The notes under the pieces were generated by a model. The model did no database searches and had not been told where the DNA came from. It saw nothing but the letters and a program-made list of their open reading frames with translations. 64,000 bases of DNA from Candidatus Woesebacteria bacterium (GTDB taxonomy: Bacteria; Patescibacteriota; Microgenomatia; UBA1400; PJMF01), in the NCBI GenBank assembly GCA_050123235.1, contig JASFHL010000004.1:40558-104557 (forward strand), in the 5' to 3' direction. Made by a program: the position numbers and the translations under genes. This document shows, piece after piece, positions 10,941-60,509 of this stretch; the stretch's first letter is position 1, and each line of letters begins with the position of its first letter.

Positions 10941-11098
10941 AAATTTACTATAAATAAATATTGCAGTGTTAAAGCGAGGTCTGGCTAAGCTTAATCTAGC
11001 ACTACATTTACTACCGAGCTTTACTGAGTGAGCTTTATATCTTAAAAATTAATAAGAGGTTGTCGCGAACGACTGCAATATTTATTTATACTAAATTT
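10941..11098 (+). repeat. MITE-like palindromic repeat, full copy A (27-bp TIR, conserved core)
   Basis: TIR aaatttactataaataaatattgcagt / actgcaatatttatttatactaaattt; core gttaaagcgaggtctggctaag...ctaccgagctttactgagtgagc...gcgaacgactg. Confidence 0.8.
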
Positions 11099-11219
11099 GG
11101 ACTGTGTTTTTCGAGCTCAGGATATTTTTTCTTCTTTGACTTTGCTCTAGAAATTGTATTATGATGATTATTAGGCAATAATTTTTGTAAAATTTTAATT
11201 TAGTGAGCAACAAAGAAAT

Positions 11220-12773
11220 ATGACTGATTCCATGAATCCTATGAATCAACAAAGCTCTAATTCAACAGCTAGCAGTAAGCCTAATTCTCAAAACCTCTTC
11301 CAAGGGATAACTAAGAAGATGGCTCAGAATACTAATGTTCAACGCGCAGCATTAAGCCAATTGGGAGCAAGTTCACTAGATAAAGCAAATCCCAACCCAT
11401 CCAGTACAAACAGCCAAAATCTATTAGACTCAATGCCTAGTTCAATAGAGGCAAAACCAAGCCAAGCTCCTATTAAAACAGCATTAAAACAACCATTGCC
11501 TAACACTCCAGCAGATCAAGGTGCAACATTAAAGCAAGCAAGCCCTCCTCCAACTCAAGAAAGTCTTACTGCTCCCAAAACAAAGTCATCAAAAAAAATA
11601 TTTTTAAGTATTGCAGTACTTTTATTTCTTGTATTTGGAGCTGGCGCTGGCTTTATTCTAAGTCAACAGTCACAAGACATTAACCGTCAAGCTACCACTC
11701 CAGAAACTGCCAAACCAACCCTAGCTGTGCTACCTGCCCCTGTTGCCACGCTTTCTGAAAAAGATCAAATTGCTAAAAAGGTACTTACTTGTTTAGACGG
11801 GATGAAGGATAACTCAGGACTTTATCCATATAAACAAAATTGTGACGAAAAAGGTAATTGTGAATCTTTACCAGATAATAATTCTGGTCCACGCCCTATT
11901 TATGCTAGATTTCATTACTACCAAAAAACTAAGGATCCTCAAGAACTTGCTATTTTTAAAAAAGATTTATCAATTAATAATACAGCTGTTTCAGGCATTC
12001 AGAATAACTTCTACAACTGTAAATTAATCGCTGAGATTCAAGCTAGCATTGATGAAATGTGGAACAACAATTTCTTGATGAAGCAAGAAAGAAATCAAGC
12101 TAGAAATATTTGCCTTCTTAGTAAAAACAACCAGCAATTAGAGCAAATCGCAGATCAAAACTTGGACAGTGAATTGGCTAAAAAACCTGATTTTGATCAA
12201 GTATATGACGATCTATCAAGTACAAAGTCAAGTAGTCAAGAAATTTTGCTCAAAACTGACCTCGCTAGTGCTAGCTATTACAGTTCTGAATATGCAGGTC
12301 GTTATTCATTACTCACCCAGAATAGAGAGACTGAATTAAAAAGAGCGATATTCTTTTACAATCAAGCCTTGCTTATGCTCTTTCAAGAAAAACAAACAGC
12401 TAATTTTAAAGATATTTGTACTTTTGGAGAAAGTTCGCTTGATCTCTACAGAGTTACTCAGGATGAGGATTATCTTAAGCTAGCCAAATATCTTTGGAGC
12501 TGGGGTGCTGATCAAACTAGCCATGACTTTTCTACCAAAACAATCTGTGCCTATTTCACTAATAGCCTTTACCAAGAAACACAAGAAGAATCTTATCAAA
12601 CAGCCAGAAGTAATTTAATTAATGATTTGATTGAAAATAATCTTGATAAAACTGGACAAATGAGTTTTGTGACTGGAGATGGCTGTTTTAATTCTGATAA
12701 AGATGCAGCTGGAAAGGTTAGTAAATCAAGTATAGATAATAGCTTATTAGTGAAAGTATTGCTAGCTGAGTAA
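11220..12773 (+). CDS. membrane-anchored secreted protein: Ser/Asn/Pro-rich N-terminal region, TM with 'GFILSQQSQDINRQA' motif, ~370-aa extracytoplasmic domain; no C-terminal anchor motif
   Basis: ORF track protein; shares N-terminal signal-anchor motif with flanking genes. Confidence 0.6.
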   Translation: MTDSMNPMNQQSSNSTASSKPNSQNLFQGITKKMAQNTNVQRAALSQLGASSLDKANPNPSSTNSQNLLDSMPSSIEAKPSQAPIKTALKQPLPNTPADQGATLKQASPPPTQESLTAPKTKSSKKIFLSIAVLLFLVFGAGAGFILSQQSQDINRQATTPETAKPTLAVLPAPVATLSEKDQIAKKVLTCLDGMKDNSGLYPYKQNCDEKGNCESLPDNNSGPRPIYARFHYYQKTKDPQELAIFKKDLSINNTAVSGIQNNFYNCKLIAEIQASIDEMWNNNFLMKQERNQARNICLLSKNNQQLEQIADQNLDSELAKKPDFDQVYDDLSSTKSSSQEILLKTDLASASYYSSEYAGRYSLLTQNRETELKRAIFFYNQALLMLFQEKQTANFKDICTFGESSLDLYRVTQDEDYLKLAKYLWSWGADQTSHDFSTKTICAYFTNSLYQETQEESYQTARSNLINDLIENNLDKTGQMSFVTGDGCFNSDKDAAGKVSKSSIDNSLLVKVLLAE

Positions 12774-12781
12774 AACAAGTA

Positions 12782-13906
12782 ATGAACATTCAAAAAAGCA
12801 GAGCCACCATTAAACGAAGCAAAAAAACTAATCTCAAATTGGTAATAAGTTTATTGTTTATTTTAATGTCAGTGACTGGTTTTTTGGCTGGACTTTATTT
12901 GACTCAGCAAAGACAAGATATTAGACAACAGGCTTATCCTGGGCAAGAATGTGACTATACTTCCCAATGTGATGGCGAAAACGAAGTTTGCAATCCTAAT
13001 ACTCATCGTTGCGAAGGTGGAGTTATCCCAAGTAGCTGTGATTGTACTGCTGCACATACTTGCACCAGTAGCAACCCTAGCTGTGGTAGCTGTGTGCGAT
13101 CGTACTGCTATATTTCACCAGTCACTGGCAACTGTGAACAATGGTGTGAGCCAGTTTGCGGTGATGTCAGTGAAGCATGTGACTTTTATTGTCTAGAATG
13201 TACCAATGCTTCTGATACTTGCGGCCCTCAGCCAACACCTGGCGGCCCGACTCCAACTCCATTCCAACCACCTACAATTACGCCTTATCACACACCGGCT
13301 GTTAGTCCTACACCGACTCCAGCTCAACCAACATCAACTCCGCCCCCAATCTCGAGCCCAACTCCTACAGTGACTGGCGCCCCTAGTTCCACTCCCACAC
13401 CGACTGCCACTTTAAGCCCAACTCCAACCGTGACTGCTAGTCCAACGCCAACTAGTCCTCCTTGGGCCTCACCAACTCCGACTAGCCCACCATGGGCATC
13501 ACCTACCCCCACCAGTCCTCCTTGGGCTTCACCAACTCCGACCTCTCCACCTTGGGTACCAACTAATACTCCAGTGCCTTGGTCAAGTCCGACCCCGATC
13601 GCTTGGACAGTACCAACTAATACTCCTGCTCCATGGGTAGTAGTACCAACTATGATTGATTGTAACTCTATCTGCTACTCTGACTCTGAATGTGCTCAAA
13701 TCGGCTTGATTTGCTATCAAGGCCGCTGCCGCTTGGCTGCTAATCCAGAAGATCAATATTGCCGTCTCCCAGCTAGTGAAGTGATGGTAGAACAACCAGT
13801 TACTCCTGAAGCATTACCAGTTGCTGGCCCAGAAGATTGGCTTAAATACCTGAAGATTGGCCTCAGTGTGCTTGGCATTGGTGCTTTACTCTTCTTGTTA
13901 ATTTAA
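12782..13906 (+). CDS. Cys-rich / Pro-Thr-rich surface protein: TM with 'GLYLTQQRQDIRQQA', Cys-rich domain, PT linker with 4x 'PTPTSPPWAS', C-terminal Cys module 'IDCNSICYSDSECAQ..CRL..NPED..CRLP', 'LPVAGPEDWLKYLK'+TM tail
   Basis: ORF track protein; C-terminal 90 aa paralogous to C-terminus of the 8732-10870 product. Confidence 0.7.
   Translation: MNIQKSRATIKRSKKTNLKLVISLLFILMSVTGFLAGLYLTQQRQDIRQQAYPGQECDYTSQCDGENEVCNPNTHRCEGGVIPSSCDCTAAHTCTSSNPSCGSCVRSYCYISPVTGNCEQWCEPVCGDVSEACDFYCLECTNASDTCGPQPTPGGPTPTPFQPPTITPYHTPAVSPTPTPAQPTSTPPPISSPTPTVTGAPSSTPTPTATLSPTPTVTASPTPTSPPWASPTPTSPPWASPTPTSPPWASPTPTSPPWVPTNTPVPWSSPTPIAWTVPTNTPAPWVVVPTMIDCNSICYSDSECAQIGLICYQGRCRLAANPEDQYCRLPASEVMVEQPVTPEALPVAGPEDWLKYLKIGLSVLGIGALLFLLI
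13441..13560 (+). repeat. intragenic tandem repeats: 4 x 30 bp (PTPTSPPWAS) inside the 12782-13906 CDS
   Basis: ccaac(g/t)cc(a/g)ac(t/c)agtcctccttgggc(c/t)tca units. Confidence 0.75.
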
Positions 13907-13974
13907 GCGATTTTTGAATATCCCAAATAAATTATATTTAAATTATATTAGAGTTATTGTTAAAAGAAGGATTG

Positions 13975-14166
13975 TTGAAACTAACAGTTTAAAATTTACT
14001 ATAGATAAATATTAGAGCGTTGAAGCGAGGTCTGGCTAAAATCGAATTAGCACATAACTTACTACCGAGCTTCACCGAGTGAGCCTTGTATCTTTAAAAT
14101 AAATACAATGTTGCAGCGAACGACTCTAAGATTCATCTATAGTAAATGAGACTGTTTCTGAGTTTA
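13975..14166 (+). repeat. MITE-like palindromic repeat, full copy B (extended ~45-bp imperfect TIR)
   Basis: Same core as copy A, ~85% identical; between surface-protein gene and tRNA. Confidence 0.8.
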
Positions 14167-14230
14167 ATAAACGATAAGTTAATAAAAAAATTAGTTTAGC
14201 TGATATAATTTACTGGGTAAATTCAAAAAC

Positions 14231-14304
14231 GCGCGCGTAGCTCAATTGGTTAGAGCACCAAGCTTATACCTTGGTGGTTCCAGGTTCGAGTCCTGGCGCG
14301 CGCA
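14231..14304 (+). tRNA. tRNA-Ile, anticodon UAU (decodes AUA); no encoded CCA
   Basis: Manual cloverleaf fold: acceptor GCGCGCG/CGCGCGC, D-stem GCTC/GAGC, anticodon stem CCAAG/CTTGG with loop cTTATAc, T-arm CCAGG-TTCGAGT-CCTGG, discriminator A. Confidence 0.8.
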
Positions 14305-14362
14305 CAAAAACACTTAAAAAGATATTTCTTGACTTTTGTAATAGAATATATGTGTATTTATT

Positions 14363-15007: not shown

Positions 15008-15107
15008 CAATATTCCACCAGAACTCCAAAAACCTCAAAGTTCTCCTCATTGTCAATCTTAAATAATCTTTCAAGAAAAAATATGAAAATATGTTAAGAT
15101 ATACATC

Positions 15108-16271: not shown

Positions 16272-16292
16272 AAAATAGTTAAAATTGCCAAA

Positions 16293-18638: not shown

Positions 18639-18715
18639 TGTTATCCTTTCTTAGATTCAAAAATCCAAATTATTAATTCGTAATTAATAAAAATTTATAC
18701 TAAAATATAAACAGG

Positions 18716-19051
18716 ATGACGCTAATCAAAAAACTACTCTTCTTGGTACTGATTCTAACCATCGCTGGTGCTGGAGTTTACTGGGCAGCTAATCAAGGTT
18801 ATCTTAAAGATACTCCTTTGGCTAATATCAGTGGCCAAGATCTGACAGAGTTTGCCCAAGACACATCAGAACAAACTAAAATTTTAGGTTCTAGAGCTAG
18901 TGAAACTGGCCAACACATTCAAACTGTATTGGGGGAAAGCATCCAGGCTAGTGATGAAAATCAGGCAATTCATGAAAAAGCTTTTGAATATGGACGTTAT
19001 TTATATTGCAAAGCAGTAGTAGAGGAATATGAGCAGGAGAATAAAAAATAA
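18716..19051 (+). CDS. hypothetical small protein with N-terminal TM helix
   Basis: ORF track. Confidence 0.4.
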   Translation: MTLIKKLLFLVLILTIAGAGVYWAANQGYLKDTPLANISGQDLTEFAQDTSEQTKILGSRASETGQHIQTVLGESIQASDENQAIHEKAFEYGRYLYCKAVVEEYEQENKK

Positions 19052-19087
19052 TATAGTTAGTAAAATAAAAATCTTGGGGTAAATAGT

Positions 19088-19247
19088 AAAACATTACTAT
19101 ACTAAATATAAGAGCGTTAAAGCGAGGTCTGGCTAAGTTCAAATCAGCAATAAATATACTACCGAGCTTTACCGAGTGAGCTTCGTAGATTAAAAAAAGA
19201 AGTAATGTAGCGGCGAACGACTCTTATATTTAGTATAGTAATGTTTT
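19088..19247 (+). repeat. MITE-like palindromic repeat, full copy C (26-bp perfect TIR)
   Basis: aaacattactatactaaatataagag ... ctcttatatttagtatagtaatgttt; same core. Confidence 0.8.
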
Positions 19248-19296
19248 AGGCAAATGACCCCAGTTTTTTATCTCATCACTAACTCTACTATTTTTA

Positions 19297-20034
19297 TCAA
19301 CCTCCAAACCTTCTCTGCCTTTTAGCAAACTCTGCCAAAGCCTTATCTAACTCATCCTTATCAAAATCTGGCATTAGAACTTCAGTGAAATAATACTCAG
19401 CATAAATACCAGACCAAGTTAAAAATCCAGACATTCTTTGCTCACCACCAGTGCGGATAATTAAATCAGGATCTGGCAAATCAGCAGTATCTAAATACTT
19501 GGCAAATAATTTTTCTGTAATTAAACGTTTTTTTTTGGAATAAGCAACCTGACTAGGTTTTAATTTAAGTTTTCCAGATTGCAGATCTTGCAATAAAGCA
19601 GCCACAGCTCTCACAATCTCATCTCTACCACCATAATTGAGAGCAAAGGTGACAGTGATCTTATTATTGTCTTTTGTTTTCTCTATCCAGTCTTTTGTTT
19701 GTCTTTGAATGTCCTCATCGAAACGACTTAAATCACCGATTGTCTTAATCCTCACTCCTTTTTCATGCAATTTTTGAGAACTTTTACTAAACGAGTCACG
19801 AAATAATTGCATCAAATAATTGATTTCTTTCTGATCGCGCTTCCAATTCTCTGTACTAAAAGCCCAAAAAGTTATATAAGGAATCTGATATTCAATGCAA
19901 GCTTCAACTAAGCTTTCAATTTTTTCATTGGCTACTAATTGATGGCCTTTAAAAATTGCCAATCCTTTCTTTCTCGCCCAACGGCGGTTGCCATCCATAA
20001 TAATGGCCAGGTGTTTAAGAGGGTTTTTTTTCAT
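19297..20034 (-). CDS. uppS: isoprenyl transferase / undecaprenyl diphosphate synthase
   Basis: 'HLAIIMDGNRRWA' and 'ITFWAFSTENWKR' cis-prenyltransferase signatures. Confidence 0.9.
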   Translation of the reverse strand: MKKNPLKHLAIIMDGNRRWARKKGLAIFKGHQLVANEKIESLVEACIEYQIPYITFWAFSTENWKRDQKEINYLMQLFRDSFSKSSQKLHEKGVRIKTIGDLSRFDEDIQRQTKDWIEKTKDNNKITVTFALNYGGRDEIVRAVAALLQDLQSGKLKLKPSQVAYSKKKRLITEKLFAKYLDTADLPDPDLIIRTGGEQRMSGFLTWSGIYAEYYFTEVLMPDFDKDELDKALAEFAKRQRRFGG

Positions 20035-24040: not shown

Positions 24041-24574
24041 TTAGCTCTCTTCCAGCCCTAAACTAGCAGCCTTACCAGCCTCAAGTTCTAAAACTATGTT
24101 CACAGGTACTTTAGGATTGTAGATAGATAAATCTGATAATTGCATATCTTTAGTTGGAGCTGGGACATTTGCTGTGATATCTACTATTTTATCATCATCC
24201 ATCCAGACTAAATCCAGATCAAATCTCATTTCTTTCATCCAAAATTTAACAATCTCTTTCTCAGGAAAAACAAAAAGCATGCCATCACTGCCAATTTTAT
24301 CTCGACCACTTAAACCTTGATTGATACTCTCAGCTGTATTTACCACTTCTACAGTCAAAATATGCTCAGCAATTTTTATCTTGATTAATTGATGATCCTC
24401 TAAAGCCAAAAGTTTTTCTGCGGAAATTTCCTCTACCAAAAAATCTTCTTTATTATTAAAAAATATTTTGCCCTCTTTAAGTTCTAGAGAAATATTTGAA
24501 CCAGACCAATTTAAAAATAAAATGGAAAAAATTAAAGCTATAATTAAAATAAAAAGGAAAAATAATTTTTTCAT
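24041..24574 (-). CDS. DUF192-family protein (COG1430) with N-terminal signal/TM
   Basis: 'GLSGR...GMLFVF...FWMKEMRFDLDLVWMDDD' pattern. Confidence 0.6.
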   Translation of the reverse strand: MKKLFFLFILIIALIFSILFLNWSGSNISLELKEGKIFFNNKEDFLVEEISAEKLLALEDHQLIKIKIAEHILTVEVVNTAESINQGLSGRDKIGSDGMLFVFPEKEIVKFWMKEMRFDLDLVWMDDDKIVDITANVPAPTKDMQLSDLSIYNPKVPVNIVLELEAGKAASLGLEES

Positions 24575-24646
24575 AAATTAAGTGCTAGATCAAAATCCTA
24601 GCCAGACCTCGCTTCAACGTTCTTATATTTATCTATAGTAATGTTC
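24570..24646 (-). repeat. truncated copy of the MITE-like repeat (TIR + 'gttgaagcgaggtctggcta...agcac' half); abuts start codon of DUF192 gene
   Basis: sequence alignment to family. Confidence 0.65.
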
Positions 24647-24657
24647 TAAATAACTCT

Positions 24658-37095: not shown

Positions 37096-37170
37096 AACAT
37101 TATTACCCATCAATCTAAAAGCCGTTCACTGCAACGTTTTATATTCTTTTAAAATACAAGGCTCACTTAG
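37096..37170 (-). repeat. truncated copy of the MITE-like repeat ('gcgaacg'-side half)
   Basis: gaacattatta...ccgttcactgcaacg...aaaatacaaggctcacttag aligns to copy E. Confidence 0.55.
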
Positions 37171-37469
37171 TTTAATTAAGATAGTTAATGAATAAAATAT
37201 CTTTCTGTCAATCCAACTTGAATCCATAAATAAACATACAGTAAACTAAACAATAAATTTATAAAAATCGGAATGCGAGGTTAAAATAAAAGCTAAGTTT
37301 AAAAGCTCCATTAACTTTAAAGACTCCGTGTGTCAAGCGAACAAGGAATAAAAGAAAGCTAATAATAAGAAAAAATAGAATCAATTTGGCGCTAAAAAAA
37401 AATTTGCAATTTAAATAGCAAACTAAGCTCCATTTTGGGATAAGTCTTTATTCAGCTACTGATAGAAAA

Positions 37470-39609: not shown

Positions 39610-40684
39610 ACAAAGCTCAAATTCTGACGAAACTATTAAAAATTACCTTAAAAAAATCAAGTTAGCTCATCCCAATTCTCATAAGGGCCAAAATGGCAAA
39701 TTAATGATCATTGGTGGCTCTAAATTATTCCATGCTGCTAGCAAATGGAGCCTGGATATTGCGTCTAAATTTGTTGACATGGTTTTTTATTCTTCAATTC
39801 CAAGTAACAACCAGCTTATCCAGGAAGCTAAAAAAAATTTTTGGAATGGGATTGTGGTAGCTCGTCAAGACATTGAAAATTATATCCAAGAAGCAGATTG
39901 TGTTTTGATTGGTCCTGGAATGGAGCGAGCTGATGAATCAAAATCTAATAAAAAAATACTCGAAAAAGTTAATCTCCAAAGTGAAACTCAACGACTTCAA
40001 ATTCAAAAAAATAATCAGCATACTAGCCAAGAGCGACTATCTCAAGAAGAATGGCAAAACGATACGCAAAAAATTGTCAATTATCTACTTAACAAATACC
40101 CTCAAAAAAAATGGGTTCTTGATGCAGGCGCTTTGCAAATGATGAACCCTAATCTACTTAATAAAAATTGCATTATTACCCCACATAAAAAAGAATTAGA
40201 ACTTATCTTGGGAAAAATAAAAATTGACAAAAATGGAAGCAGCTCTTTTGGCCAAAATAAAAATTATTCTAGCCAGCAAATCTCAACACAGGAATTTCAA
40301 CAAGTAAGTGAACTTCTAAACAAAAGCACTATCTTACTTAAAGGCCCAGTGGACTATGTAATTAGCCCACAAGGACAAAAAAAAACAATTCTGGGAAAAT
40401 TAAAAACTGATATCAAGCAGCCAGATAGCCAAACAAAAATCATTCCAATTAAAGGCGGCAATGCTGGCATGACTAAAGGCGGCACCGGGGATGTTTTGGC
40501 TGGCCTGCTGGCTGCTCTCTATTGCCAACATGACGCTATCACCAGTGCTGTAGTAGCTAGTTACATTAACAAAAAAGCTGGCGACAAATTATATGAAAAA
40601 GTTGGACCATATTTTAATGCTAGTGATTTAGTAGAAGTAATTCCAGAAGTGATTTGGGAAGAAATAAGAAGTTGTGTATTATAA
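39578..40684 (+). CDS. ADP-dependent NAD(P)H-hydrate dehydratase (YjeF C-terminal / Nnr family) with long Lys/Gln-rich insert
   Basis: 'KGQNGKLMIIGGS' and 'GGTGDVLAGLLAAL' signatures. Confidence 0.75.
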   Translation: MAKTKKQKMNKQSSNSDETIKNYLKKIKLAHPNSHKGQNGKLMIIGGSKLFHAASKWSLDIASKFVDMVFYSSIPSNNQLIQEAKKNFWNGIVVARQDIENYIQEADCVLIGPGMERADESKSNKKILEKVNLQSETQRLQIQKNNQHTSQERLSQEEWQNDTQKIVNYLLNKYPQKKWVLDAGALQMMNPNLLNKNCIITPHKKELELILGKIKIDKNGSSSFGQNKNYSSQQISTQEFQQVSELLNKSTILLKGPVDYVISPQGQKKTILGKLKTDIKQPDSQTKIIPIKGGNAGMTKGGTGDVLAGLLAALYCQHDAITSAVVASYINKKAGDKLYEKVGPYFNASDLVEVIPEVIWEEIRSCVL

Positions 40685-43433: not shown

Positions 43434-43781
43434 ATGCTATTAAACTTAATTTCCAAAGTTTATGCTCAAAATACTGGTGTTTCCGAACTTGACCTAAGTA
43501 AACAGCTTAAGCTTAATACGACAGAAGCTGTAGCTGATAAATATGATAATCCAATGACTTTAATTAACTTGCTTGTTCCCACCGTCTTTGTAATTGCAGG
43601 AATTATCTTTTTTATTCTCATTATTGTGGCTGGCTACAAATACATTGCCAAAGGTCAAAAAGGAATTGATGAAGCCAAAAGCCTTATTGGGGCAGCTGTA
43701 GCCGGTTTCATGCTGATGTTTGCAGCTTACTGGATTATTCAAATTATCAAAGGAATAACTGGGGCAGATATTCCTATTTAA
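43434..43781 (+). CDS. VirB2/TrbC-like small two-TM protein (T4SS pilin candidate), paralog 1
   Basis: TM1 - short basic loop ('KGQKGIDEAKS') - TM2; tandem paralog family. Confidence 0.5.
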   Translation: MLLNLISKVYAQNTGVSELDLSKQLKLNTTEAVADKYDNPMTLINLLVPTVFVIAGIIFFILIIVAGYKYIAKGQKGIDEAKSLIGAAVAGFMLMFAAYWIIQIIKGITGADIPI

Positions 43782-43884
43782 AGTTTTGATACCCTACAGA
43801 TTTAAGTTTCGAAATTAAAAAAGAGCCTTGCCCCCTGAAAAATAAATTTTTGTTATAATAGCTTGATTGACAAACTGACTGAAG

Positions 43885-44340
43885 ATGAAAAAAACTTTTT
43901 TAAATAAAACTCTGCAAAAAAAAACTTTTCCAAAAATCATAAGTTTATTTATATTTATTAATTTATTAATTAGTTCAATTTTCCCGGACGCAGCTTTGGC
44001 AGCAGATGATGTTTTAGGAGGAAAAATTAAACCTCCACCGGGAGTAGAAAAATATAACGTAGGAGGAAGAATTGGTATTATTGTTTTTATTTCCAATTTA
44101 ATTAAAGTGGCAACTGTAGTTGCTGGCATCTGGGTATTAATCAATGTTATTTTAGCTGGCTGGAAATACATCACTTCAAGTGGTGACTCTAAAGCTCACG
44201 GAGAAGTAAGTAGCAAAATTACTTACAGTATCATTGGCCTCGTTATTATTGTGCTAGCCTATACTATTACAGCTTTAATTAGTTTAATTATTTTTGGTGA
44301 TGCAGGCTTTATTTTGAATCCACAAATAGAAGGTATTTAA
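43885..44340 (+). CDS. VirB2/TrbC-like pilin candidate, paralog 2 (signal peptide ...ALA|A)
   Basis: signal peptide + 2 TM, loop 'SSGDSKAHGE'. Confidence 0.5.
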   Translation: MKKTFLNKTLQKKTFPKIISLFIFINLLISSIFPDAALAADDVLGGKIKPPPGVEKYNVGGRIGIIVFISNLIKVATVVAGIWVLINVILAGWKYITSSGDSKAHGEVSSKITYSIIGLVIIVLAYTITALISLIIFGDAGFILNPQIEGI

Positions 44341-44344
44341 AAAC

Positions 44345-44731
44345 ATGTTAATTAATCTTTATACTTTAGTTGCAAATAACCTTGATTTTGGCACAGGCTT
44401 TGAACCCCCTTCTACTGCCTATAGTGAAGGATCAACAACTCAAGAAGGTGCTATTAAAAACTTAGAATTATTTCTTTCCAATTTAATTGGTTTTTTGACT
44501 ATTTTAGCTAGTCTTTTCTTTTTAGTTTATTTTTTTGTTGCTTCTTTTCAGTGGGTTACTTCTGGAGGTGACAGTGGTAAAGCTCAAAAAGCTAGAGACC
44601 GCATGCTCCAAGGAGCTCTAGGACTAATTATTATAATAGCGGCTTATTCCATCATCGGCCTGATTGGTAAAATCGTTGGCTTAGACATTCTTAACCCAAG
44701 AGAAGCAATTGAAAGAATTATTCCAACATAA
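44345..44731 (+). CDS. VirB2/TrbC-like pilin candidate, paralog 3
   Basis: 'FQWVTSGGDSGKAQKARDRMLQGALGLIII' family motif. Confidence 0.55.
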   Translation: MLINLYTLVANNLDFGTGFEPPSTAYSEGSTTQEGAIKNLELFLSNLIGFLTILASLFFLVYFFVASFQWVTSGGDSGKAQKARDRMLQGALGLIIIIAAYSIIGLIGKIVGLDILNPREAIERIIPT

Positions 44732-44764
44732 AGTTTTAAAGTTAGCGAAAAATTCAAAAAAAAT

Positions 44765-45220
44765 ATGAAAAAAAACAACAATAGATTAAACACAAAAACT
44801 AAAAAACTAGGCATTGCATTAATCGCTGGTCTAGTTGGTTTGAAAAAATTAATCAGCGCCAAGCTAACTCAAGCTCAGATCACTAATCCAGCCTTAAAAG
44901 AAGATTCCGTGATTAATAAATATGAAAGTGCTGAATCGGGAGAAGCTTTTTTTGACTATTTTGCCATGCTCTGGCGTTCAGCTCTTAGCATGGGAATTTT
45001 AGTTGTTTTAGTTTTTTTTCTTTGGGGTGCTTTTGAATGGATGACAGCTGGCGGCGATAGTGCTAAAGTCCAAAAAGCCAGAGATAGGATTATAAATGCC
45101 ACTATTGGTCTAATTATCATGGCTAGTATTTTTGCCATTGTTGGCTTCTTTGGAGAGCTATTCTTTGGCGAAGACTTTAATATTTTAGAATTTACTTTCC
45201 CAACTCCATCAGGAACCTAA
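44765..45220 (+). CDS. VirB2/TrbC-like pilin candidate, paralog 4
   Basis: 'FEWMTAGGDSAKVQKARDRIINATIGLIIM'. Confidence 0.55.
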   Translation: MKKNNNRLNTKTKKLGIALIAGLVGLKKLISAKLTQAQITNPALKEDSVINKYESAESGEAFFDYFAMLWRSALSMGILVVLVFFLWGAFEWMTAGGDSAKVQKARDRIINATIGLIIMASIFAIVGFFGELFFGEDFNILEFTFPTPSGT

Positions 45221-45224
45221 AACT

Positions 45225-45557
45225 ATGATCACAACAATTGCGCAAGTCACCATTGATTTACAAGAAAAGGTAGCCAAGGAAGGAGTGCCTTTCGCAGAAG
45301 AAGAAGGCGGCGAAGGCATGGCTGTTTTGATTAGTAGAATGATGACCCTTGCCATGGTTGCTGCTACTATTCTTGTTTTACTTTATTTAATCTGGGGAGC
45401 CATAGAATGGATCACCTCTGGAGGTGACAGTGGTAAAGTCCAAAAAGCCAGAGATAAAATCATTCAAGCAATAATTGGGCTTTTGGTTCTATCTGCTAGC
45501 GGAGCTTTAATTATGTTAATTCAAAACTTTTTGGGCATTGAAGTGTTAGAATTTTAG
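45225..45557 (+). CDS. VirB2/TrbC-like pilin candidate, paralog 5
   Basis: 'IEWITSGGDSGKVQKARDKIIQAIIGLLVL'. Confidence 0.55.
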   Translation: MITTIAQVTIDLQEKVAKEGVPFAEEEGGEGMAVLISRMMTLAMVAATILVLLYLIWGAIEWITSGGDSGKVQKARDKIIQAIIGLLVLSASGALIMLIQNFLGIEVLEF

Positions 45558-45677
45558 CGACTCTTAAATAAAAACCAAATAATAAGAGTGAACTGATTGA
45601 CAGACGAAAAAAAATCTTGATATGATATAATTTAGAAAAAGAATTTTGATTTTAAAAACAATTAAAAAGGAGAAACA

Positions 45678-46082
45678 ATGAAAAGAATCCAAAAACTTGC
45701 TATTTCAGCTGGGTCTGTTTTAACAACTTTACAAATGACAGCTGTCTCCGCGCACGCAGCCATTACTGCTAAAAAAATCAGTCCAGGAACTGGTTATTCA
45801 ACTGATATTGGAGCAATGATCAATGGTTTGCTTAGAATCGTGATGGTCATAGCCGCTTTGCTTGTTTTTGCTTATTTAATTTGGGGTGGTATTGAATGGA
45901 TTACATCAGGTGGTGACAAAGGCAAAACCGAAAATGCTAGAAACAAGATTACTCAAGCAGTAATTGGTTTAGTTGTGATCGCTGCTTCTTATGCTATCTT
46001 AACTCTAGTGTTGAACTTCCTTGGCTTTGAAGAAGGCCTAGACACTGTTTTCCAACAAGATATTAATCTTTCCGGAGAATAA
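45678..46082 (+). CDS. VirB2/TrbC-like pilin candidate, paralog 6 (signal peptide ...AHA|A)
   Basis: 'IEWITSGGDKGKTENARNKITQAVIGLVVI'. Confidence 0.55.
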   Translation: MKRIQKLAISAGSVLTTLQMTAVSAHAAITAKKISPGTGYSTDIGAMINGLLRIVMVIAALLVFAYLIWGGIEWITSGGDKGKTENARNKITQAVIGLVVIAASYAILTLVLNFLGFEEGLDTVFQQDINLSGE

Positions 46083-46100
46083 AAATTATTTAGAAATTAG

Positions 46101-46127
46101 AAAAAGCCTCCGTATGGAGGCTTTTTT
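46101..46127 (+). terminator. rho-independent terminator (bidirectional A-tract/stem/T-tract)
   Basis: aaaaaGCCTCCgtatGGAGGCtttttt directly after paralog 6 stop. Confidence 0.75.
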
Positions 46128-46272
46128 GGTTTTATTGATATCTAAGACTTATAGAAATTTTAAAAAAAAGTTGTTTGAAATATTACTAAAACTAAAAAAA
46201 CCACCACAGAAGATTTATTCTATAATTGAGGTTATAATAAAATTGTTTTAAAATCCCAATTATTAGATCAAT

Positions 46273-46716
46273 ATGAAAAAAAAGCTTAAATCATTACAAA
46301 CTTTTATCTTTAGTCTCAGCTTATTGTTCATCCCTTTTTTCCTTCCTTCTCAATCTTACGCGCAAACTAGCACTTGGGAGGGCGTCTGTGTGGGACCCAC
46401 TGAAAAATCAAGTGATGTAGCTACCATCCAAGGAGCCCAATGTCTAATCGCTAATATTTTTTCCGTGGCTATTACCTTAATTGGCTTAGTCGGCTTTATA
46501 ATGTTAATTTTTGCTTCTTTAAAATGGATGCTAGCGGGCACTAATGCTCAAAACAAAGATAAAGCTCGAAATATGGCTGTTTATGCTTTTGTTGGTTTAA
46601 TTGTAGCTCTCTGTTCATTTATGATTTTGAAGTTAGTTTCAGACTTCACCGGAGTAAAAACAATTCTTAACTTCAGCATTCCCAGTTCTGATATTAATTG
46701 GGAAGAAAGACTTTAA
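46273..46716 (+). CDS. VirB2/TrbC-like pilin candidate, divergent paralog 7 (signal peptide, 2 Cys)
   Basis: 'LKWMLAGTNAQNKDKARNMAVYAFVGLIVAL'. Confidence 0.45.
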   Translation: MKKKLKSLQTFIFSLSLLFIPFFLPSQSYAQTSTWEGVCVGPTEKSSDVATIQGAQCLIANIFSVAITLIGLVGFIMLIFASLKWMLAGTNAQNKDKARNMAVYAFVGLIVALCSFMILKLVSDFTGVKTILNFSIPSSDINWEERL

Positions 46717-47732: not shown

Positions 47733-47773
47733 ATTCTTTTATTAAGCGATGTAAGAGTAATGAAGTTAGAGTT

Positions 47774-47910
47774 ATATTAAAAACAGAATACGTTCGCTGT
47801 AACATTTTTTTATTTTTAAAAAACTAGGCTCACTTGGTGAAGCTCGGCAGTATACAAAGTGCTAACTTAAATCTAGCTAGACCTCGCTTCAACACTCTGT
47901 TTTTAATATA
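47774..47910 (-). repeat. MITE-like palindromic repeat, full copy D (reverse orientation)
   Basis: Reverse complement aligns to core; TIR tatattaaaaacagaatacg / actctgtttttaatata. Confidence 0.75.
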
Positions 47911-47913
47911 ATT

Positions 47914-48921
47914 CTAATTCTCTAGCCTTACTCCCTCAACATCTAAATTTACTTTAATTAGTTTACCACCGGCGTTTTTCAGGCTAGCAGCAACTTTTTC
48001 AATCTTGGATTCTTCTGCTACAGCAATCATACAATCCCCTCCTCCAGCTCCAGACAATTTAGCTCCTGTTGCTCCAGCTTTTTCTGCTGCCCTAATCAGT
48101 TTTTCTAACTCTAAACTGCTTACTTCCAATTTTCTTAACAAAGTCTGATTTGCTTTCATTAAATCTCCTAGTTTTTTTATGTCGTTGCTTGCCAAAACTT
48201 TCTTAGCCTGTTCTACAATCCTATCAATTTCTTCAAAAACCTCCCCTATTTTCACTGGATTTTTATCTTTTAAGTTAGCAACCATTCTAATCAAAGTTGG
48301 AGTGTCAGCTTTAACGCCAGTATAGCCTACTAATAATGGCAAGTTCTTGATTTGAATTGTTTCCACCTTATCAGCTGGGGGCACATAATAGATTGTGCCT
48401 CCCCAAATTGCGGCTGCGAGATCAAAACCAGATCCTACGCCTTGTACCTCCAAAACAGCTTGATAACAAAGATCAAATAGCTCTTTTTTGCTTAAATTAA
48501 AACCATATAAAGTAGTTAATGCCTTAGCAAAGGCCACAGTCACAGCACTACTAGAACCAAAACCAAAAGAGCTGGAGAAATCACTCTTTGTAATCACATG
48601 AACACCCTTCTTCTGAGGATATTTTTCCAAAAAGCGTTTATACAAAGTTTCTACAAAACGCACAGACTTCGGAGGTTTTTTGCCCAAATCTGCTATTGTC
48701 TTAGAATAAATCTTTAAACCCAAATCAGGAGCTTCCAAAGAAAAAACATCATTTCCATTTTGTTTTACAGTCACAAATAGATGCTGATCTACAGCTGTCA
48801 CAATACAGGGATGGCCATGAACGACACTATGTTCGCCAAAAAGCATTAATTTTCCTGGAGCTGAAGCAGTGACTGCTTTCATAAGACATATATTATAGTC
48901 GTAAAAATTGGAGAAAATCAT
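47914..48921 (-). CDS. mvk: mevalonate kinase (GHMP kinase)
   Basis: 'SAPGKLMLFGEHSVVHG', GHMP motif 'GFGSSSAVTVAF'. Confidence 0.8.
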   Translation of the reverse strand: MIFSNFYDYNICLMKAVTASAPGKLMLFGEHSVVHGHPCIVTAVDQHLFVTVKQNGNDVFSLEAPDLGLKIYSKTIADLGKKPPKSVRFVETLYKRFLEKYPQKKGVHVITKSDFSSSFGFGSSSAVTVAFAKALTTLYGFNLSKKELFDLCYQAVLEVQGVGSGFDLAAAIWGGTIYYVPPADKVETIQIKNLPLLVGYTGVKADTPTLIRMVANLKDKNPVKIGEVFEEIDRIVEQAKKVLASNDIKKLGDLMKANQTLLRKLEVSSLELEKLIRAAEKAGATGAKLSGAGGGDCMIAVAEESKIEKVAASLKNAGGKLIKVNLDVEGVRLEN

Positions 48922-50274: not shown

Positions 50275-50316
50275 TTTGCAGCGAACGACCCTAATTCTTA
50301 TATATTGTGAGAATGA
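50275..50316 (+). repeat. solo right-end fragment of the MITE-like repeat (ttgcagcgaacgaccctaa...)
   Basis: alignment to right end of copy B. Confidence 0.5.
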
Positions 50317-52720: not shown

Positions 52721-52756
52721 ATTAAGGTTATAATGCCTTTTAGAATTCTCAATTAA

Positions 52757-53224: not shown

Positions 53225-53228
53225 CTTA

Positions 53229-57284: not shown

Positions 57285-57365
57285 AAGCAGTATTAATTAT
57301 AAAGCGAGTTCCAAATTAAAGCAGGATTGAAATAGTGATTTAAACTAGATATTATTTTTAGAAAG

Positions 57366-57412
57366 GAACATTGTTTTATAGCGAACGACTCTAAATTAAA
57401 GTATTATGAGTT
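57366..57412 (+). repeat. deleted/solo fragment of the MITE-like repeat (gaacattg...tttatagcgaacgactctaa)
   Basis: alignment to family ends. Confidence 0.45.
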
Positions 57413-57424
57413 TTAAATAACTCT

Positions 57425-57883
57425 CTAAAGCAATTCTGAGTCACTATTATCAATCGCTTCATTAGCTAAGCGATCAGCTTCTTTGTTTTTTTCACGAGAG
57501 ATGTATGTTACTTTTGTAGGGTAGGGGAGCAATGCTAATTTTTGCCAAGCCTCCTTAACAAAAACTTTTAATCTATCTTCTTTTACTTTCCAATTTTTAT
57601 TTATCTGTTCCACCACTAGCTTTGAGTCTAAATGCCACTTAGCAGCATCAATCTCGTGTTTTTGACTATAATTACTTATCCAAACTAAAGATTTTAAAAA
57701 AGCTAGATATTCTGCTTCATTATTAGTTTTTTTTCCCAAAAATAAAGATTGCTGAAAAACTTCATCTTTATCTTGATCAATAACATAGATTCCAGCTCCA
57801 GCCAAGCCGGGATTTCCACGAGAAGCTCCGTCTGTAAAAATTATTAATTGTTTTTTATTTTTAAAATGATGATTAGCAGACAT
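57425..57883 (-). CDS. rnhA: ribonuclease HI
   Basis: 'IFTDGASRGNPGLAGAGIYV...NNEAEYLAFLKSL'. Confidence 0.85.
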   Translation of the reverse strand: MSANHHFKNKKQLIIFTDGASRGNPGLAGAGIYVIDQDKDEVFQQSLFLGKKTNNEAEYLAFLKSLVWISNYSQKHEIDAAKWHLDSKLVVEQINKNWKVKEDRLKVFVKEAWQKLALLPYPTKVTYISREKNKEADRLANEAIDNSDSELL

Positions 57884-57897
57884 TTTTATTTTTAAAA

Positions 57898-58356
57898 CTA
57901 TTCTTCTTTTAATCTAATTGTCAAAACTCTTCCTTCTGGGGTGTCTTCTGAAACAGTTTCCAATGAATCAGCAGATTCACTTTCAGCAATCACCGTATGA
58001 ATCAAATGCCTTTCATAAGAATTTAAATCAAAAAACAAATAAGGCTTAGCTGTATCTAAAACAAGCTGAGCCTTTCTTAAAGCTCTATCTTTTACTTTTT
58101 CATCTTTATCAGCTTTATAATGATTAATATCAACTACTATTTTCTTTTCTTCTTTATCTTGGAAGATAGTTCTTAATAAATGCTCTATTGATTTAAGAGT
58201 TTCTCCGTTTTTCCCAATAAATAGGCTTGATTGGTTTTTATCTAAATCTAATGAAAATTCAATCCTTGAGTCTGTTTCATTAATTTTAATATCAAATTCA
58301 TCTTCAGCTAAATCTAAATAAGCAAAAAATTTTTTTAAATACGATTTAATTGTCAT
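57898..58356 (-). CDS. Jag/KhpB-like RNA-binding protein (KH + R3H)
   Basis: 'LFIGKNGETLKSIEHLL' KH-like, C-terminal R3H-like; conserved position after yidC. Confidence 0.7.
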   Translation of the reverse strand: MTIKSYLKKFFAYLDLAEDEFDIKINETDSRIEFSLDLDKNQSSLFIGKNGETLKSIEHLLRTIFQDKEEKKIVVDINHYKADKDEKVKDRALRKAQLVLDTAKPYLFFDLNSYERHLIHTVIAESESADSLETVSEDTPEGRVLTIRLKEE

Positions 58357-58382
58357 AAATTTTTTATTTTTATTAAAATTTT

Positions 58383-59150
58383 TTAGTCTGTTTTTCTAGC
58401 AAGCAGTCTTTGAGTATATAGCTTTAAGCCTCCCAAACCAGAAACAAAATATTGTTGGATAATACTAAAAACAGTGGTTGTAATCCAATACAAAGCCATA
58501 CCTGAAGGAAATCTTAAAGCAATTAAAGCCGTCATCACTGGCATCACAAAAATCATTTGCTTTTGCATCATGGCAGCCATTTCAGCCATGTCTTCTTCTT
58601 TTTCATTAGCTTTTTTAACTTTTTTTGATCTACTTTTATTAGGCACAATATCTGGAACTTCTCCTCCTGGAGAAATCATCAAGGCCAAAAACAATTGACT
58701 TATTCCTGCAAAAATAGGCAAGAAGTATCGCTGATCAGGCTGAGTTAAATCAAGCCATAAAAAACTATTGTTGATTACCTGACCATCAATTTCAACAGCT
58801 CCATTGTTAATAAAAGACATCAAAGCCTTATACAAAACAATTAAGATAAGCAATTGCAAAATTTGAGGCAAGCAGCCGGCCACTGGATTTACATTATATT
58901 TTTTATAAAGTTCGAGTTGAGCCATCTGTAAAGCTTTTTTATCATTTTTATGTTTTTTCTTAAGTTTGTCGAGTTCTGGCTTCATCTTTGTCATTTTTTT
59001 TCTTGATTTTAAAGAAGGTAGAGTTAGGGGAATCAATAAAGATCTGATTGCTATTGTAAAAACAATAATAGCAATGCCCATATTTCCTACAAGAGAGTAG
59101 AGCATTAACAATAAATTAGAAAAAAGTTCGACTAAAGTTGACATAATCAA
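58383..59150 (-). CDS. yidC: membrane protein insertase YidC (short form)
   Basis: 5-TM 60 kDa-IMP core, 'QQKQMIFVMPVMTALIALRFPSGMALYWITTTVFSIIQQYF' conserved C-terminal region. Confidence 0.85.
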   Translation of the reverse strand: MIMSTLVELFSNLLLMLYSLVGNMGIAIIVFTIAIRSLLIPLTLPSLKSRKKMTKMKPELDKLKKKHKNDKKALQMAQLELYKKYNVNPVAGCLPQILQLLILIVLYKALMSFINNGAVEIDGQVINNSFLWLDLTQPDQRYFLPIFAGISQLFLALMISPGGEVPDIVPNKSRSKKVKKANEKEEDMAEMAAMMQKQMIFVMPVMTALIALRFPSGMALYWITTTVFSIIQQYFVSGLGGLKLYTQRLLARKTD

Positions 59151-59175
59151 TAAATCCTTTTAATTAATGAAAAAA

Positions 59176-59367
59176 CTACCAGCAACTGATAATTCTCCAT
59201 AAAGCTCTAATTAACCCAACAATTGTACCATGTTTTTTGATTTCTACTATCGCATATTGACTACAGCTAGGATTATGCTTACAAACACTAACATAACCAA
59301 AAACAGAAAATAAAATTTGTTCTTTTATTTTTGCTAAGTGCTGGTAAAATTTAATTATTAAAAACAT
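59176..59367 (-). CDS. yidD: membrane protein insertion efficiency factor YidD
   Basis: 'CKHNPSCSQYAIVEIKKHGTIVG' YidD signature. Confidence 0.75.
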   Translation of the reverse strand: MFLIIKFYQHLAKIKEQILFSVFGYVSVCKHNPSCSQYAIVEIKKHGTIVGLIRALWRIISCW

Positions 59368-59447
59368 ATTTTCAAATTTTTATTTAATAATGTATTATAT
59401 ACTTTTGTTTTACTTATAAAATTAAAATAAAAAAAGAAAAATAGATT

Positions 59448-59714
59448 ATGAAATGGAGAAGGAAAGACGATGAACCAATTTCTGAAGGACCACCCTGTCC
59501 AAGGTGTTACAGCACTATGTATGCTAAAAGTTCCCAGTGGTTCTGCCCCAACCCGAAGTGTGATTTCAGCGAGGGCGGGTCTTTATCCAATTATCCAAAA
59601 TACTTTGGATCCATTGATGATGATGTCCAAAAAGCAAGATTACTAGCTGCTGCTAGAAGACGCAGAGAAAAAGCTGAAAAGAAAAAGAAAAAACGAGGAA
59701 AAAAGAGAAGATAA
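59448..59714 (+). CDS. small zinc-ribbon protein (CPRC...CPNPKC) with Lys/Arg-rich C-terminal tail, antisense to the rnpA-yidD operon
   Basis: ORF track; fills a 356-bp gap between rnpA and yidD; GC slightly elevated. Confidence 0.4.
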   Translation: MKWRRKDDEPISEGPPCPRCYSTMYAKSSQWFCPNPKCDFSEGGSLSNYPKYFGSIDDDVQKARLLAAARRRREKAEKKKKKRGKKRR

Positions 59715-59723
59715 TCCTTCTCT

Positions 59724-60092
59724 CTAAAATATTTTTTTTAAACTCTTAAACAACTCTTTTCTCAATCCCTCAAAACTTAGATCTTTCAACTTAGACTTTG
59801 CCATCAGAATCATTTTTAAGCTATTTTTCCTTTTGTTTTCAAGAGATAAAGCTTTATCTTTTAAATAAAATTCTTTTATTAGCTGATAAAGCTGTCGCTT
59901 TAATTTATTTCTAAGCACTGCTTTATTAGCAATTTTTTTGGGAATAACAACTGCAAACTGATCAAAGTTTTCTTTTTGATCTTCTAAAAGATAAAAAATA
60001 GTAAAATAGGGAGAGAATATCTTCTTTGCTTTTTTAAAAAAGATAGAGTTTACTTGAAGTCTTAAGTTTAAGCGATTTTTTTTAGCAAGCAT
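59724..60092 (-). CDS. rnpA: ribonuclease P protein component
   Basis: basic 122-aa protein, 'KKIANKAVLRNKLKRQL' RnpA motif; follows rpmH. Confidence 0.8.
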   Translation of the reverse strand: MLAKKNRLNLRLQVNSIFFKKAKKIFSPYFTIFYLLEDQKENFDQFAVVIPKKIANKAVLRNKLKRQLYQLIKEFYLKDKALSLENKRKNSLKMILMAKSKLKDLSFEGLRKELFKSLKKIF

Positions 60093-60131
60093 TATCTTAT
60101 TTTAAACCTCAATTATAAAAAGGCAAAACTA

Positions 60132-60281
60132 CTAGACTTTCTTTTTAACAGTTAGCTTTTTTCTGCCTTTTTTTCTTCGTCTCTTAAGCACTAATCTACC
60201 AGTTAAGCTTTTCATTCTCTTTAAAAAGCCATGCTTTCTCATTCTTTTTTTCTTTTTGGGATTCCAGGTTCTCTTTGGCAT
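60132..60281 (-). CDS. rpmH: 50S ribosomal protein L34
   Basis: Manual translation of the minus strand (not in ORF track, below its length cut-off): [49 protein letters not shown]. Confidence 0.85.
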
Positions 60282-60350
60282 AAGTGGCAATTATATCAAT
60301 AAAATTAAATAATTAAAACTACTGATATCTTAAAAATGAGTAGATCTGTT

Positions 60351-60509
60351 GAACATTAATTTAGATAAATTTTGGACACGTTCGCTGCAGCATTAGTCTT
60401 ATTTTTAAGATACAAGGCTCACTCGGTGAAGCTCGGTAGTGAATAAATTGCTTATTCAAGTCTAACCAGACCTCGCTTCAACGGTCAAAATTTATCTAAA
60501 TTAATATTC
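60351..60509 (-). repeat. MITE-like palindromic repeat, full copy E (reverse orientation, ~28-bp TIR) between dnaN and rpmH
   Basis: gaacattaatttagataaattttggacacg ... cggtcaaaatttatctaaattaatattc; same core. Confidence 0.8.

Follow-up and report, generated by a model that had tools for sequence, protein, structure and literature searches.

What is the short palindromic sequence that recurs between the genes of a 64-kb stretch of DNA from a Candidatus Woesebacteria bacterium (positions 40,558 to 104,557 of contig JASFHL010000004.1), and with which known repeats does it belong? We refer to this whole 64-kb stretch as the window. The element is a non-coding hairpin of ~165-200 bp, present in the window as five full copies, one 5' half, one 3' half and two short 3'-end remnants (nine in total). 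We give about an even chance to the explanation that it is a proliferating, co-transcribed, self-folding intergenic repeat of the ERIC, BOX and Correia kind, whose single-stranded fold, probably as RNA, is under selection. Judged by Rfam 15 and by the literature that was accessible, the family is new. It belongs with the small structured intergenic repeats (ERIC, BOX, Correia and YPAL), and its centre is unusually well structured and conserved for that kind of repeat.

Copies, arms and core

From the five full copies an nhmmer profile was built that recovers all of them (E 1e-41 to 1e-49) and both halves, and a covariance model picks up the same seven, with 144-161 bits for the full copies and 43 and 22 bits for the halves. 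The core motif AAGCGAGGTCTGGCTA, searched with up to three mismatches, has six matches against 0.28 expected, and the core 23-mer CTACCGAGCTTYACCRAGTGAGC has five against 0.00 expected. Both of the smallest fragments were missed by nhmmer, yet they match the 17-mer GCAGCGAACGACTCTAA with one or two mismatches (at 50278 and 57378; chance 0.04), and each bears ~20-35 nt of homologous right arm. These statistics substantiate the dense, multi-copy, non-coding palindromic family with decayed fragments that had been proposed in a sequence-only reading of the same DNA. The copies are as follows, with P1 denoting the outer stem and P2 to P5 the helices of the core.

10941-11098, plus strand: full copy; P1 arms 10941-10967/11072-11098 (27 nt, 96% complementary); core 10967-11071; nhmmer match 10936-11103, E 5.6e-46; covariance model 153.8 bits; 70 nt 3' of the stop codon of open reading frame (ORF) 8732-10870, in the same orientation
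13987-14147, plus strand: full copy; P1 arms 13994-14017/14124-14147 (24 nt, 92% complementary), with weaker pairing out to about 13985-14156; core 14018-14122; nhmmer match 13987-14147, E 7.6e-49; covariance model 161.1 bits; 3' of ORF 12782-13906 and 5' of tRNA-Ile(UAU) 14231-14305
19087-19248, plus strand: full copy; P1 arms 19087-19114/19221-19248, perfectly complementary; core 19115-19219; nhmmer match 19086-19250, also found by the covariance model; between the convergent genes 18716-19051 (plus) and uppS 19297-20034 (minus)
47766-47917, minus strand: full copy; P1 arms 47766-47787/47896-47917; core 47791-47894; nhmmer match 47764-47921, also found by the covariance model; in the mvk-mvaD spacer
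60351-60509, minus strand: full copy; P1 arms 60351-60374/60486-60509, with pairing that extends to 60330-60530; core 60379-60483; nhmmer match 60348-60514, also found by the covariance model; between the dnaN stop codon and the rpmH promoter
24574-24648, minus strand: 5' half copy with the left arm, the 5' strand of P2, and P3; nhmmer E 2e-15, profile positions 5-77
37101-37171, minus strand: 3' half copy with P5, P4 and the right arm; nhmmer E 4.8e-10, profile positions 90-160; covariance model 43.3 bits
50275-50316, plus strand: 3'-terminal remnant with GCAGCGAACGAC and part of the right arm; one mismatch to the 17-mer; covariance model 19.7 bits, E 0.017; in a divergent promoter region
57366-57420, plus strand: 3'-terminal remnant with AGCGAACGACTCTAA and ~35 nt of right arm; two mismatches to the 17-mer; antisense to both neighbouring genes

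The right arm of the 57366 remnant reads AGAGTTATTTAAAAC..., agreeing with the arm of the 24574 copy. That half copy ends exactly at the start codon of a DUF192 ORF (24041-24574) and makes up the entire upstream region of this gene.

Each full copy is closed by the AT-rich P1 stem, whose outer arms of 22-28 nt are 92-100% complementary and can often be extended to ~45 bp; whole elements fold at -44 to -57 kcal/mol. Homology among the arms of different copies spans ~36 nt (consensus ..AGTTnTTTAGAACATTACTATAGATAAATATTAGAG), with an identity between copies of 0.53-0.67 in the arms and 0.78 in the core. Differences between the arms come in pairs, such as GCAG/CTGC against AGAG/CTCT or T to A on both sides, and the 19087 copy carries a matching one-base deletion in both arms. 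Two further propositions of the sequence-only reading, that the stems differ among copies while two-sided changes keep them complementary, and that they enclose a conserved core, are thereby supported. From YGTT to AACG the core measures 104-105 nt in six of seven full copies, a count that includes one of the two copies in a relative genome (described below); the second copy of that relative measures 110 nt.

Pairwise divergence among the window copies is 15-26%. In a self-BLAST of the window, similarity is limited to the elements, except at the 10.9- and 14.0-kb loci. The two copies there (10941 and 13975) sit 3' of paralogous surface-protein genes, with similarity that spans the coding 3' ends into the spacer (C-termini 48% identical), and may represent one old duplication rather than two insertions; all remaining copies have unrelated flanks. 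Independent insertion, as opposed to a single duplicated region, is accordingly upheld for most of the family and possibly fails for this pair. L001 and L115, two contigs assembled for the same organism from short reads (Logan), terminate within the element, each at model position ~92, as expected for a genome-wide repeat; in practice, short-read assemblies of the host break within it.

Both surface-protein paralogues, ORFs 8732-10870 and 12782-13906 (plus strand), lack any Pfam or NCBIfam match; they are rich in Pro/Thr and contain Cys-rich repeats, with repeats inside the DNA at 9629-10272 and 13355-13636. Their common C-terminal motif, LP..GP.DWLKYLK.GL.VLG.G.LLFLL, resembles a sorting or anchor signal.

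A covarying three-way junction

The structural analysis rests on a MAFFT alignment of the seven full copies from two genomes, with the consensus fold computed by RNAalifold. The consensus is a three-way junction of P1, P2 (with P3) and P5. P2 pairs YG(U)URAAGC-GA-GGU with ACC-GA-GCUUYA(C)YR and is capped by hairpin P3, while P5 pairs GY-GA-GC with GC-GA-RC and is capped by a variable AT hairpin. Across the alignment, 12 of the 25 consensus pairs are altered on both sides, and paired cells amount to 89.7%, compared with 33-44% when partners are slid by 1-3 columns; the observed covariation was reached in 0 of 500 shuffles. P2 displays the pair series G-C/A-U and C-G/U-G/U-A, and a U-A pair of P5 is exchanged for C-G in one copy of the relative (L119 5008-5158).

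The fold also distinguishes the two strands. On the sense strand, both internal 2x2 loops are tandem G·A/A·G pairs, which would read U·C/C·U on the complement. All eight sequences that extend over the position of the P5 tandem have it, all five window copies have the P2 tandem, and a U·C mismatch in P2 is fixed and never 'corrected'. A process that perfects palindromes should have removed the G·A tandems and the U·C mismatch, and their retention therefore speaks against such a process. G·U and A·C occur in a ratio of 11:5 on the sense strand, and the minimum free energy of the sense core lies below that of the antisense core in 7/7 cores, partly owing to base composition.

Database searches returned no described counterpart. 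At the gathering threshold, Rfam 15 finds only the tRNA in the whole window, which agrees with the earlier remark that the core has no obvious match to known bacterial RNA families, and permissive Rfam scans of three copies gave unrelated matches at E 0.06-8, none of them recurring. There was no blastn match in plasmids or phages, and a viral scan gave 0. Scanning genome contigs (596 Gb) with the 16-mer AAGCGAGGTCTRGYTA, which is too short for that volume, yielded 113 stretches, all attributable to chance and none with a second core motif. Among metagenome contigs, a 28-base gapped pattern that matches all five window copies gave 0 matches, and the 20-mer CCGAGCTTYACYRAGTGAGC gave three chance matches (one on a 68%-GC contig) whose similarity stops at the 20-mer. 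The literature searched, with a coverage that is incomplete and so no proof of absence, holds no account of repeats in Patescibacteria that resemble MITEs (miniature inverted-repeat transposable elements) or repetitive extragenic palindromes (REPs).

Nor did a mobilising gene emerge. Among the 44 of 65 window ORFs of at least 100 aa that were scanned with Pfam or NCBIfam there is no transposase, integrase or reverse transcriptase gene and no Y1_Tnp/HUH transposase match, in line with the sequence-only reading, which had seen no transposase in the window; precomputed Pfam labels for the genes of the first ~9 kb likewise include no transposase. The sole RVT_3 match in the window is an RNase HI-type ORF (57425-57883). 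No direct target-site duplication was seen: where homology stops, near AGTT... and ~36-38 nt from the core, the repeats in the flanks are inverted and not direct, the exact ends being uncertain, and no TA-bounded ends can be defined.

Several specific identities were considered and rejected. The three-way junction superficially resembles a type III hammerhead, which is defined by invariant C3-U4-G5-A6-N7-G8-A9 and G12-A13-A14 and by an A15.1-U16.1 pair, but its junction strand reads CCGAGUGA (CUGAGUGA in one copy, CCAAGUGA in another) instead of CUGANGA and is one base too long; U4 and G5 are not conserved, C-G stands where A15.1-U16.1 is needed, and there is no Rfam hammerhead match. A covarying Y-R pair places the G·A tandem within P5, not at the junction. 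An integron attC site has the reverse box order (RYYYAAC ... GTTRRRY, against 5'-YGTTRAAG ... GCGAACG-3' here). GTTRAAG does not end in the required Y, housekeeping genes surround the copies (dnaN, rpmH, mvk, mvaD, uppS), and no integrase was found. A k-turn was dropped on its defining motifs. As for a hidden peptide, the ORFs within the three elements checked are all at most 33 aa, and one 64-aa ORF enters the 19087 copy from the upstream coding region. An internal outward promoter (TTYACY-17/18-TAAAAT in the P4 region, 14071-14100) was set aside, since promoter-like matches are no more frequent than chance predicts (37 against 41 expected) and both rpmH and tRNA-Ile have a TGATATAAT box of their own 3' of the element.

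Genomic position and relatives

All copies are intergenic, though for two of them the outer pairing reaches into a stop codon, that of mvk (47914-47916) or of dnaN (60527-60529). In all five full window copies and both halves, the sense strand coincides with that of the gene directly upstream, and for six of these seven the upstream stop codon lies 4-70 nt away. Over the two genomes, six of seven full copies are oriented like the upstream gene. The strand count of three plus and four minus within a single replichore gives no replication-strand bias. Orientation follows transcription, not replication, in a sample too small for significance.

Past the 36-nt arms, the flanks are still mutually complementary in three of the seven copies. 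When left flanks were compared with reverse-complemented right flanks, these cognate pairs scored 14, 20 and 19, whereas non-cognate pairs averaged 8.5 ± 2.1 and reached at most 13. Two of these outer repeats are delimited as follows.

10874-11149: outer inverted repeat around the 10941-11098 copy; arms 10874-10901/11122-11149 (28 nt, 86% complementary); cognate score 14
19052-19287: outer palindrome around the 19087-19248 copy, from local alignment; cognate score 20

The clearest example is the 19087 copy, which sits in the loop of AAAAATCTTGGGGT...ACCCCAGTTTTTT, a hairpin that resembles a bidirectional terminator (CTTGGGGT...ACCCCAG+TTTTTT). Either the element prefers dyad-symmetric sites, or palindromy grows outward by template switching. 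The location of some copies within larger local dyads, one of them terminator-like, suggests that the element inserts into the loops of hairpins, where it closes on itself and is nearly harmless.

A relative genome (JGI Ga0309788_100001; L119 and L126), whose DnaN is 56% identical to that of the window, has two copies.

L119 11254-11399, plus strand: copy in the dnaN-rpmH spacer; 106.6 bits
L119 5008-5158, minus strand: copy upstream of dnaA, on the opposite strand; 57.7 bits, E ~1e-13

The former is orthologous to the window copy at 60351-60509, as rpmH, its TGnTATAAT promoter, the spacer and the element are colinear. The region 60131-60533 is 68% identical to L119 11617-11226, a value inside the 58-77% spanned by the blastn matches, mostly in coding sequence, that connect the two genomes. 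Both relative copies keep CCGAG(T/C)GAGC and GCGA(A/G)CG; their P2 retains GAAG/CTTC and is distally rebuilt. Their arms are 0.47-0.50 identical to the window arms and still self-complementary, and blocks of the core are identical. Copies group by genome, with identities of 0.74-0.85 within the window and 0.50-0.65 across genomes.

Insertion polymorphism is apparent at two sites. The dnaN-rpmH spacer is filled in the window and in this relative, and empty (20, 47 and 54 nt) in three others. The mvk-mvaD spacer, which measures 181 nt with the element in the window, is empty in four relatives, where it measures 81, 36 or 16 nt or the genes overlap. Five other relatives have no copy in the ~75 kb sampled. 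Judged from these comparisons, the family inserts or multiplies and decays, yet can be long retained.

The relative also carries a second, unrelated long-stem element of 115 nt (L119 11105-11220; arms TAGAGAAAATAAGATAATACCTTT/AAAGGTATTATCTTATTTTCTCTA) that adjoins the orthologous copy between dnaN and rpmH, and a 31-nt piece of it recurs at L126 8886-8916. In the window, the region 1287-1471, which the sequence-only reading took for a divergent relative of the family, has no match to the hidden Markov model or the covariance model and was discarded. It belongs to a single-copy, near-perfect 200-nt hairpin (1267-1496; -96.7 kcal/mol) with nested arms 1280-1307/1455-1482 and 1321-1346/1415-1440, whose right arm enters the start codon of a glycosyltransferase ORF (1481-2680). 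These two hairpins are unrelated to the family and to each other, and these genomes seem to hold several hairpin-repeat families. Between dnaA and dnaN, the relative further contains an insert (L119 6773-9983) with AAA ATPase (DUF4143) and PIN/MazE toxin-antitoxin genes, flanked by its two inverted repeat copies; the window genome is without both the insert and the dnaA-proximal copy.

The window is AT-rich (33.6% GC) and contains dnaA, dnaN, rpmH, rnpA, yidC, a mevalonate-pathway cluster, uppS, type-IV-secretion-like pilins and glycosyltransferases. By its sequence, the host is a Woesebacteria-like bacterium of the Candidate Phyla Radiation (CPR)/Patescibacteria without a close sequenced sibling in the collections searched: its DnaN is identical to a protein recorded under a metagenome-assembled Candidatus Woesebacteria bacterium, and the closest other relatives of this DnaN are only 56-57% identical. 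Genomes of this group are ~1 Mb and highly streamlined, and the repeat takes up roughly 1.6% of the 64 kb. This share, together with retention at an orthologous site in a second genome, makes it unlikely that the repeat is pure junk. GC skew is negative through ~60 kb, near which it switches sign, and perfect DnaA boxes number just two in the window, one on each side of dnaA (61643-61981 and 63551-63700).

61901: DnaA box TTTTCCACA, paired with an inverted near-box at 61912
63640: DnaA box TTATCCACA

The skew switch and these boxes place the replication origin at the end of the window, and the dnaA flanks are probably oriC. A DnaA-box scan of the window found none inside the repeat element.

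Extended -10 matches (TGnTATAAT) occur at 14201, 43851 and 45623 (plus) and at 60290 (minus), a chance-level number (4 against 4.5 expected), and all four lie just 5' of genes in gene orientation: tRNA-Ile, two pilin-like ORFs and rpmH. The rpmH box ends 9 nt before the ATG, which suggests a leaderless mRNA or one with a very short leader. The tRNA-Ile(UAU) gene (14231-14305, plus; ARAGORN; Rfam tRNA 74.5 bits) lies 84 nt 3' of a repeat copy and has its TGATATAAT box at 14201-14209; the anticodon UAU is a rare way of reading AUA without lysidine (tilS). Small paralogous ORFs at 43434-46716 are syntenic with T4SS_pilin (PF18895) genes of relatives and contain internal DNA repeats (44507-44598 against 45363-45454; 45003-45111 against 45373-45481).

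Explanations and known systems

We infer that the functional fold is the sense strand as RNA, because copies lie 4-70 nt past a stop codon in gene orientation and would hence be co-transcribed. In this model, transcripts would carry the element at the 3' end of the upstream gene or between cistrons. There, the P1 duplex (22-45 bp) could serve as an RNase III-type processing site, or as a 3' hairpin that blocks exonucleases or aids termination. Precedents exist: the stem of Correia/NEMIS transcripts is described as a substrate of RNase III with effects on neighbouring mRNAs, and ERIC as an orientation-dependent modulator of mRNA stability (PMC2229807). A self-closing element may be tolerated in a terminator loop or spacer and, once fixed, loss of pairing would be deleterious; such per-locus selection for a closed hairpin is our proposed reason why arms drift yet stay complementary, the orthologous pair included. 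The conserved junction would imply a specific partner or activity, for propagation, function or both, and the mobilising activity is presumably encoded outside the window. Of the roles that the sequence-only reading had offered, a transcribed structured RNA is favoured over a simple transposon with terminal inverted repeats by the covarying three-way junction, the non-canonical pairs on one strand and the orthologous site in the second genome. In bacteria about whose gene regulation very little is known, the family would be a candidate signal for processing or stability at the RNA level, and it provides a clean natural example of compensatory stem evolution around a fixed core.

Several points weigh against a selected, co-transcribed RNA. 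The core alone is not unusually stable (z-scores -1.7 to +1.1). The seven full sequences come from two genomes, share common descent and themselves yielded the fold, so that the covariation counts are inflated to an unquantified degree. Selection of 'master' copies for mobility, rather than per-locus function, could account for the conserved blocks and the covariation, arm complementarity could be kept by hairpin-templated repair instead of selection, and the choice of RNA over single-stranded DNA is itself inferred. The orientation bias is not significant (five sense to one antisense among full copies between co-directional genes, p ~0.11), and antisense orientation is seen in the 57366 remnant and in the relative's second copy. 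T5 runs follow the stem in four of seven copies against a background of 0.34 (P = 0.19, not enriched), and a terminator scan flags just the P3 hairpin of the truncated 24574 copy (24584-24602) and no full element.

An ordinary MITE derived from a DNA transposon is an unlikely source. Here the inverted repeats would serve a transposase encoded elsewhere, with the core a passenger conserved through recent spread. The family does share most general properties of bacterial MITE-like repeats as listed by Delihas (PMC2229807): it is AT-rich, non-coding and multi-copy, falls below 200 bp (within the usual 200-250 bp limit), has inverted ends and truncated remnants, and shows filled and empty sites. 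A transposase could also lie elsewhere in the genome, the negative covering scanned ORFs of the 64-kb window. Absent are the conserved termini, which in a MITE match the ends of an insertion sequence (looked for within the window), as well as TA ends and direct target duplications. The termini are instead the least conserved part, those of the relative being near-random when set against those of the window, the flanks form inverted repeats, and the supposed passenger core contains conserved mismatches and covariation. Copies that differ by 15-26% argue against recent spread, and their arms are nonetheless almost fully paired. For the same reasons (variable termini, no target duplication, no TA ends) the Correia-type MITE architecture put forward earlier is not supported. 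It is likewise unlikely that the palindrome matters or persists at the level of DNA, in single-stranded or cruciform form, whether as a substrate of an HUH enzyme or a REP-associated tyrosine transposase (RAYT) or as a selfish palindrome, not selected for any RNA function, whose arms intrastrand template switching at replication homogenises and lengthens outward. Arm-to-arm copying is the simplest explanation of the symmetric changes, including the one-base deletion of the 19087 copy, and palindromy does reach into copy-specific flanks in three of seven copies. REPINs offer a precedent, being long hairpins mobilised as single-stranded DNA. Template switching should, however, have brought perfect pairing to the tandem G·A/A·G positions and to the U·C mismatch, all of which are retained wherever the helix is present. 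The conservation of the centre and not the arms is the opposite of REP/REPIN, no replication-strand bias is seen, and no Y1/HUH transposase was matched among the window ORFs scanned.

Least probable among the explanations considered is that the core is a new functional RNA, for instance a self-cleaving ribozyme or a protein-binding or processing signal, with a founder copy 3' of dnaN that was later multiplied in the host. The 104-nt core, with its two fixed tandem G·A motifs and invariant CCGAG(U/C)GAGC / GCGA(A/G)CG junction, would then be an undescribed Patescibacteria RNA class, perhaps a processing module between cistrons that cleaves itself or recruits a protein, and in this lineage now a mobile cassette in 3' untranslated regions, a prospect we regard as quite improbable. 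If the core were catalytic or protein-binding, it would constitute a new RNA class. Its compact junction, invariant junction and internal-loop bases, covarying stems, variable loops and constant length suit such an RNA, as do the lack of an Rfam match and an orthologous site kept between genomes whose DnaN is just 56% identical. Small self-cleaving ribozymes are often multi-copy and intergenic. Yet most invariant bases lie in helices and fit a young or narrow family equally well, the relative has a rearranged P2 tip, and the hammerhead-like topology fails in its catalytic core. There is no consistent class of downstream gene, the element is absent from the five other relatives in the sequence sampled, and the core is thermodynamically unexceptional.

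Among described systems, a self-folding, co-transcribed repeat under selection compares with ERIC/IRU (127 bp), likewise an imperfect palindrome that is intergenic and found in filled and empty sites, with a conserved centre and no known transposase; ERIC is co-transcribed with its neighbours, as is probable here, and acts on mRNA stability in an orientation-dependent manner (PMC2229807). The likeness is one of behaviour only. ERIC is defined by homology to its 127-bp consensus and an enterobacterial or Vibrio host, whereas the host here belongs to the CPR and has 34% GC. The outer stem is also much longer here (22-45 bp), the fold is a three-way junction with tandem G·A and not a single long imperfect hairpin, and no TA ends or target duplications were seen. 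Correia/NEMIS elements of Neisseria (about 105-155 bp) are similar in size, density, intergenic location and long inverted ends. Their terminal inverted repeats (about 24-26 bp) are conserved and TA-ended with a TA duplication, and many contain an IHF site, whereas in the present family the ends are most variable and the centre is conserved. YPAL/RU-2 of Yersinia (168 bp) likewise has termini without a TA motif and is reported at sites of dyad symmetry (PMC2229807), which parallels the outer palindromes of three of the seven copies; it differs in its 3-26 bp target duplications, none of which is seen here, and in not being AT-rich. REP/REPIN-RAYT systems resemble the family as hairpin repeats that keep their stem pairing through compensatory change. 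REPs, however, are 20-40 nt long with conserved arms and a GTAG/CTAC motif and depend on RAYT, while here the arms are not conserved, the conserved part is a large structured centre of 104 nt, and neither a RAYT in the window nor a Y1_Tnp among the ORFs scanned was found. BOX of Streptococcus pneumoniae is a modular, multi-copy, intergenic repeat whose complementary end modules are predicted to pair into a stable stem, which is transcribed with its neighbours and which likewise has no known mobilising enzyme. In BOX, the boxA and boxC ends are conserved and the number of boxB modules varies, whereas in the present family it is the ends that vary, around a middle of fixed length.

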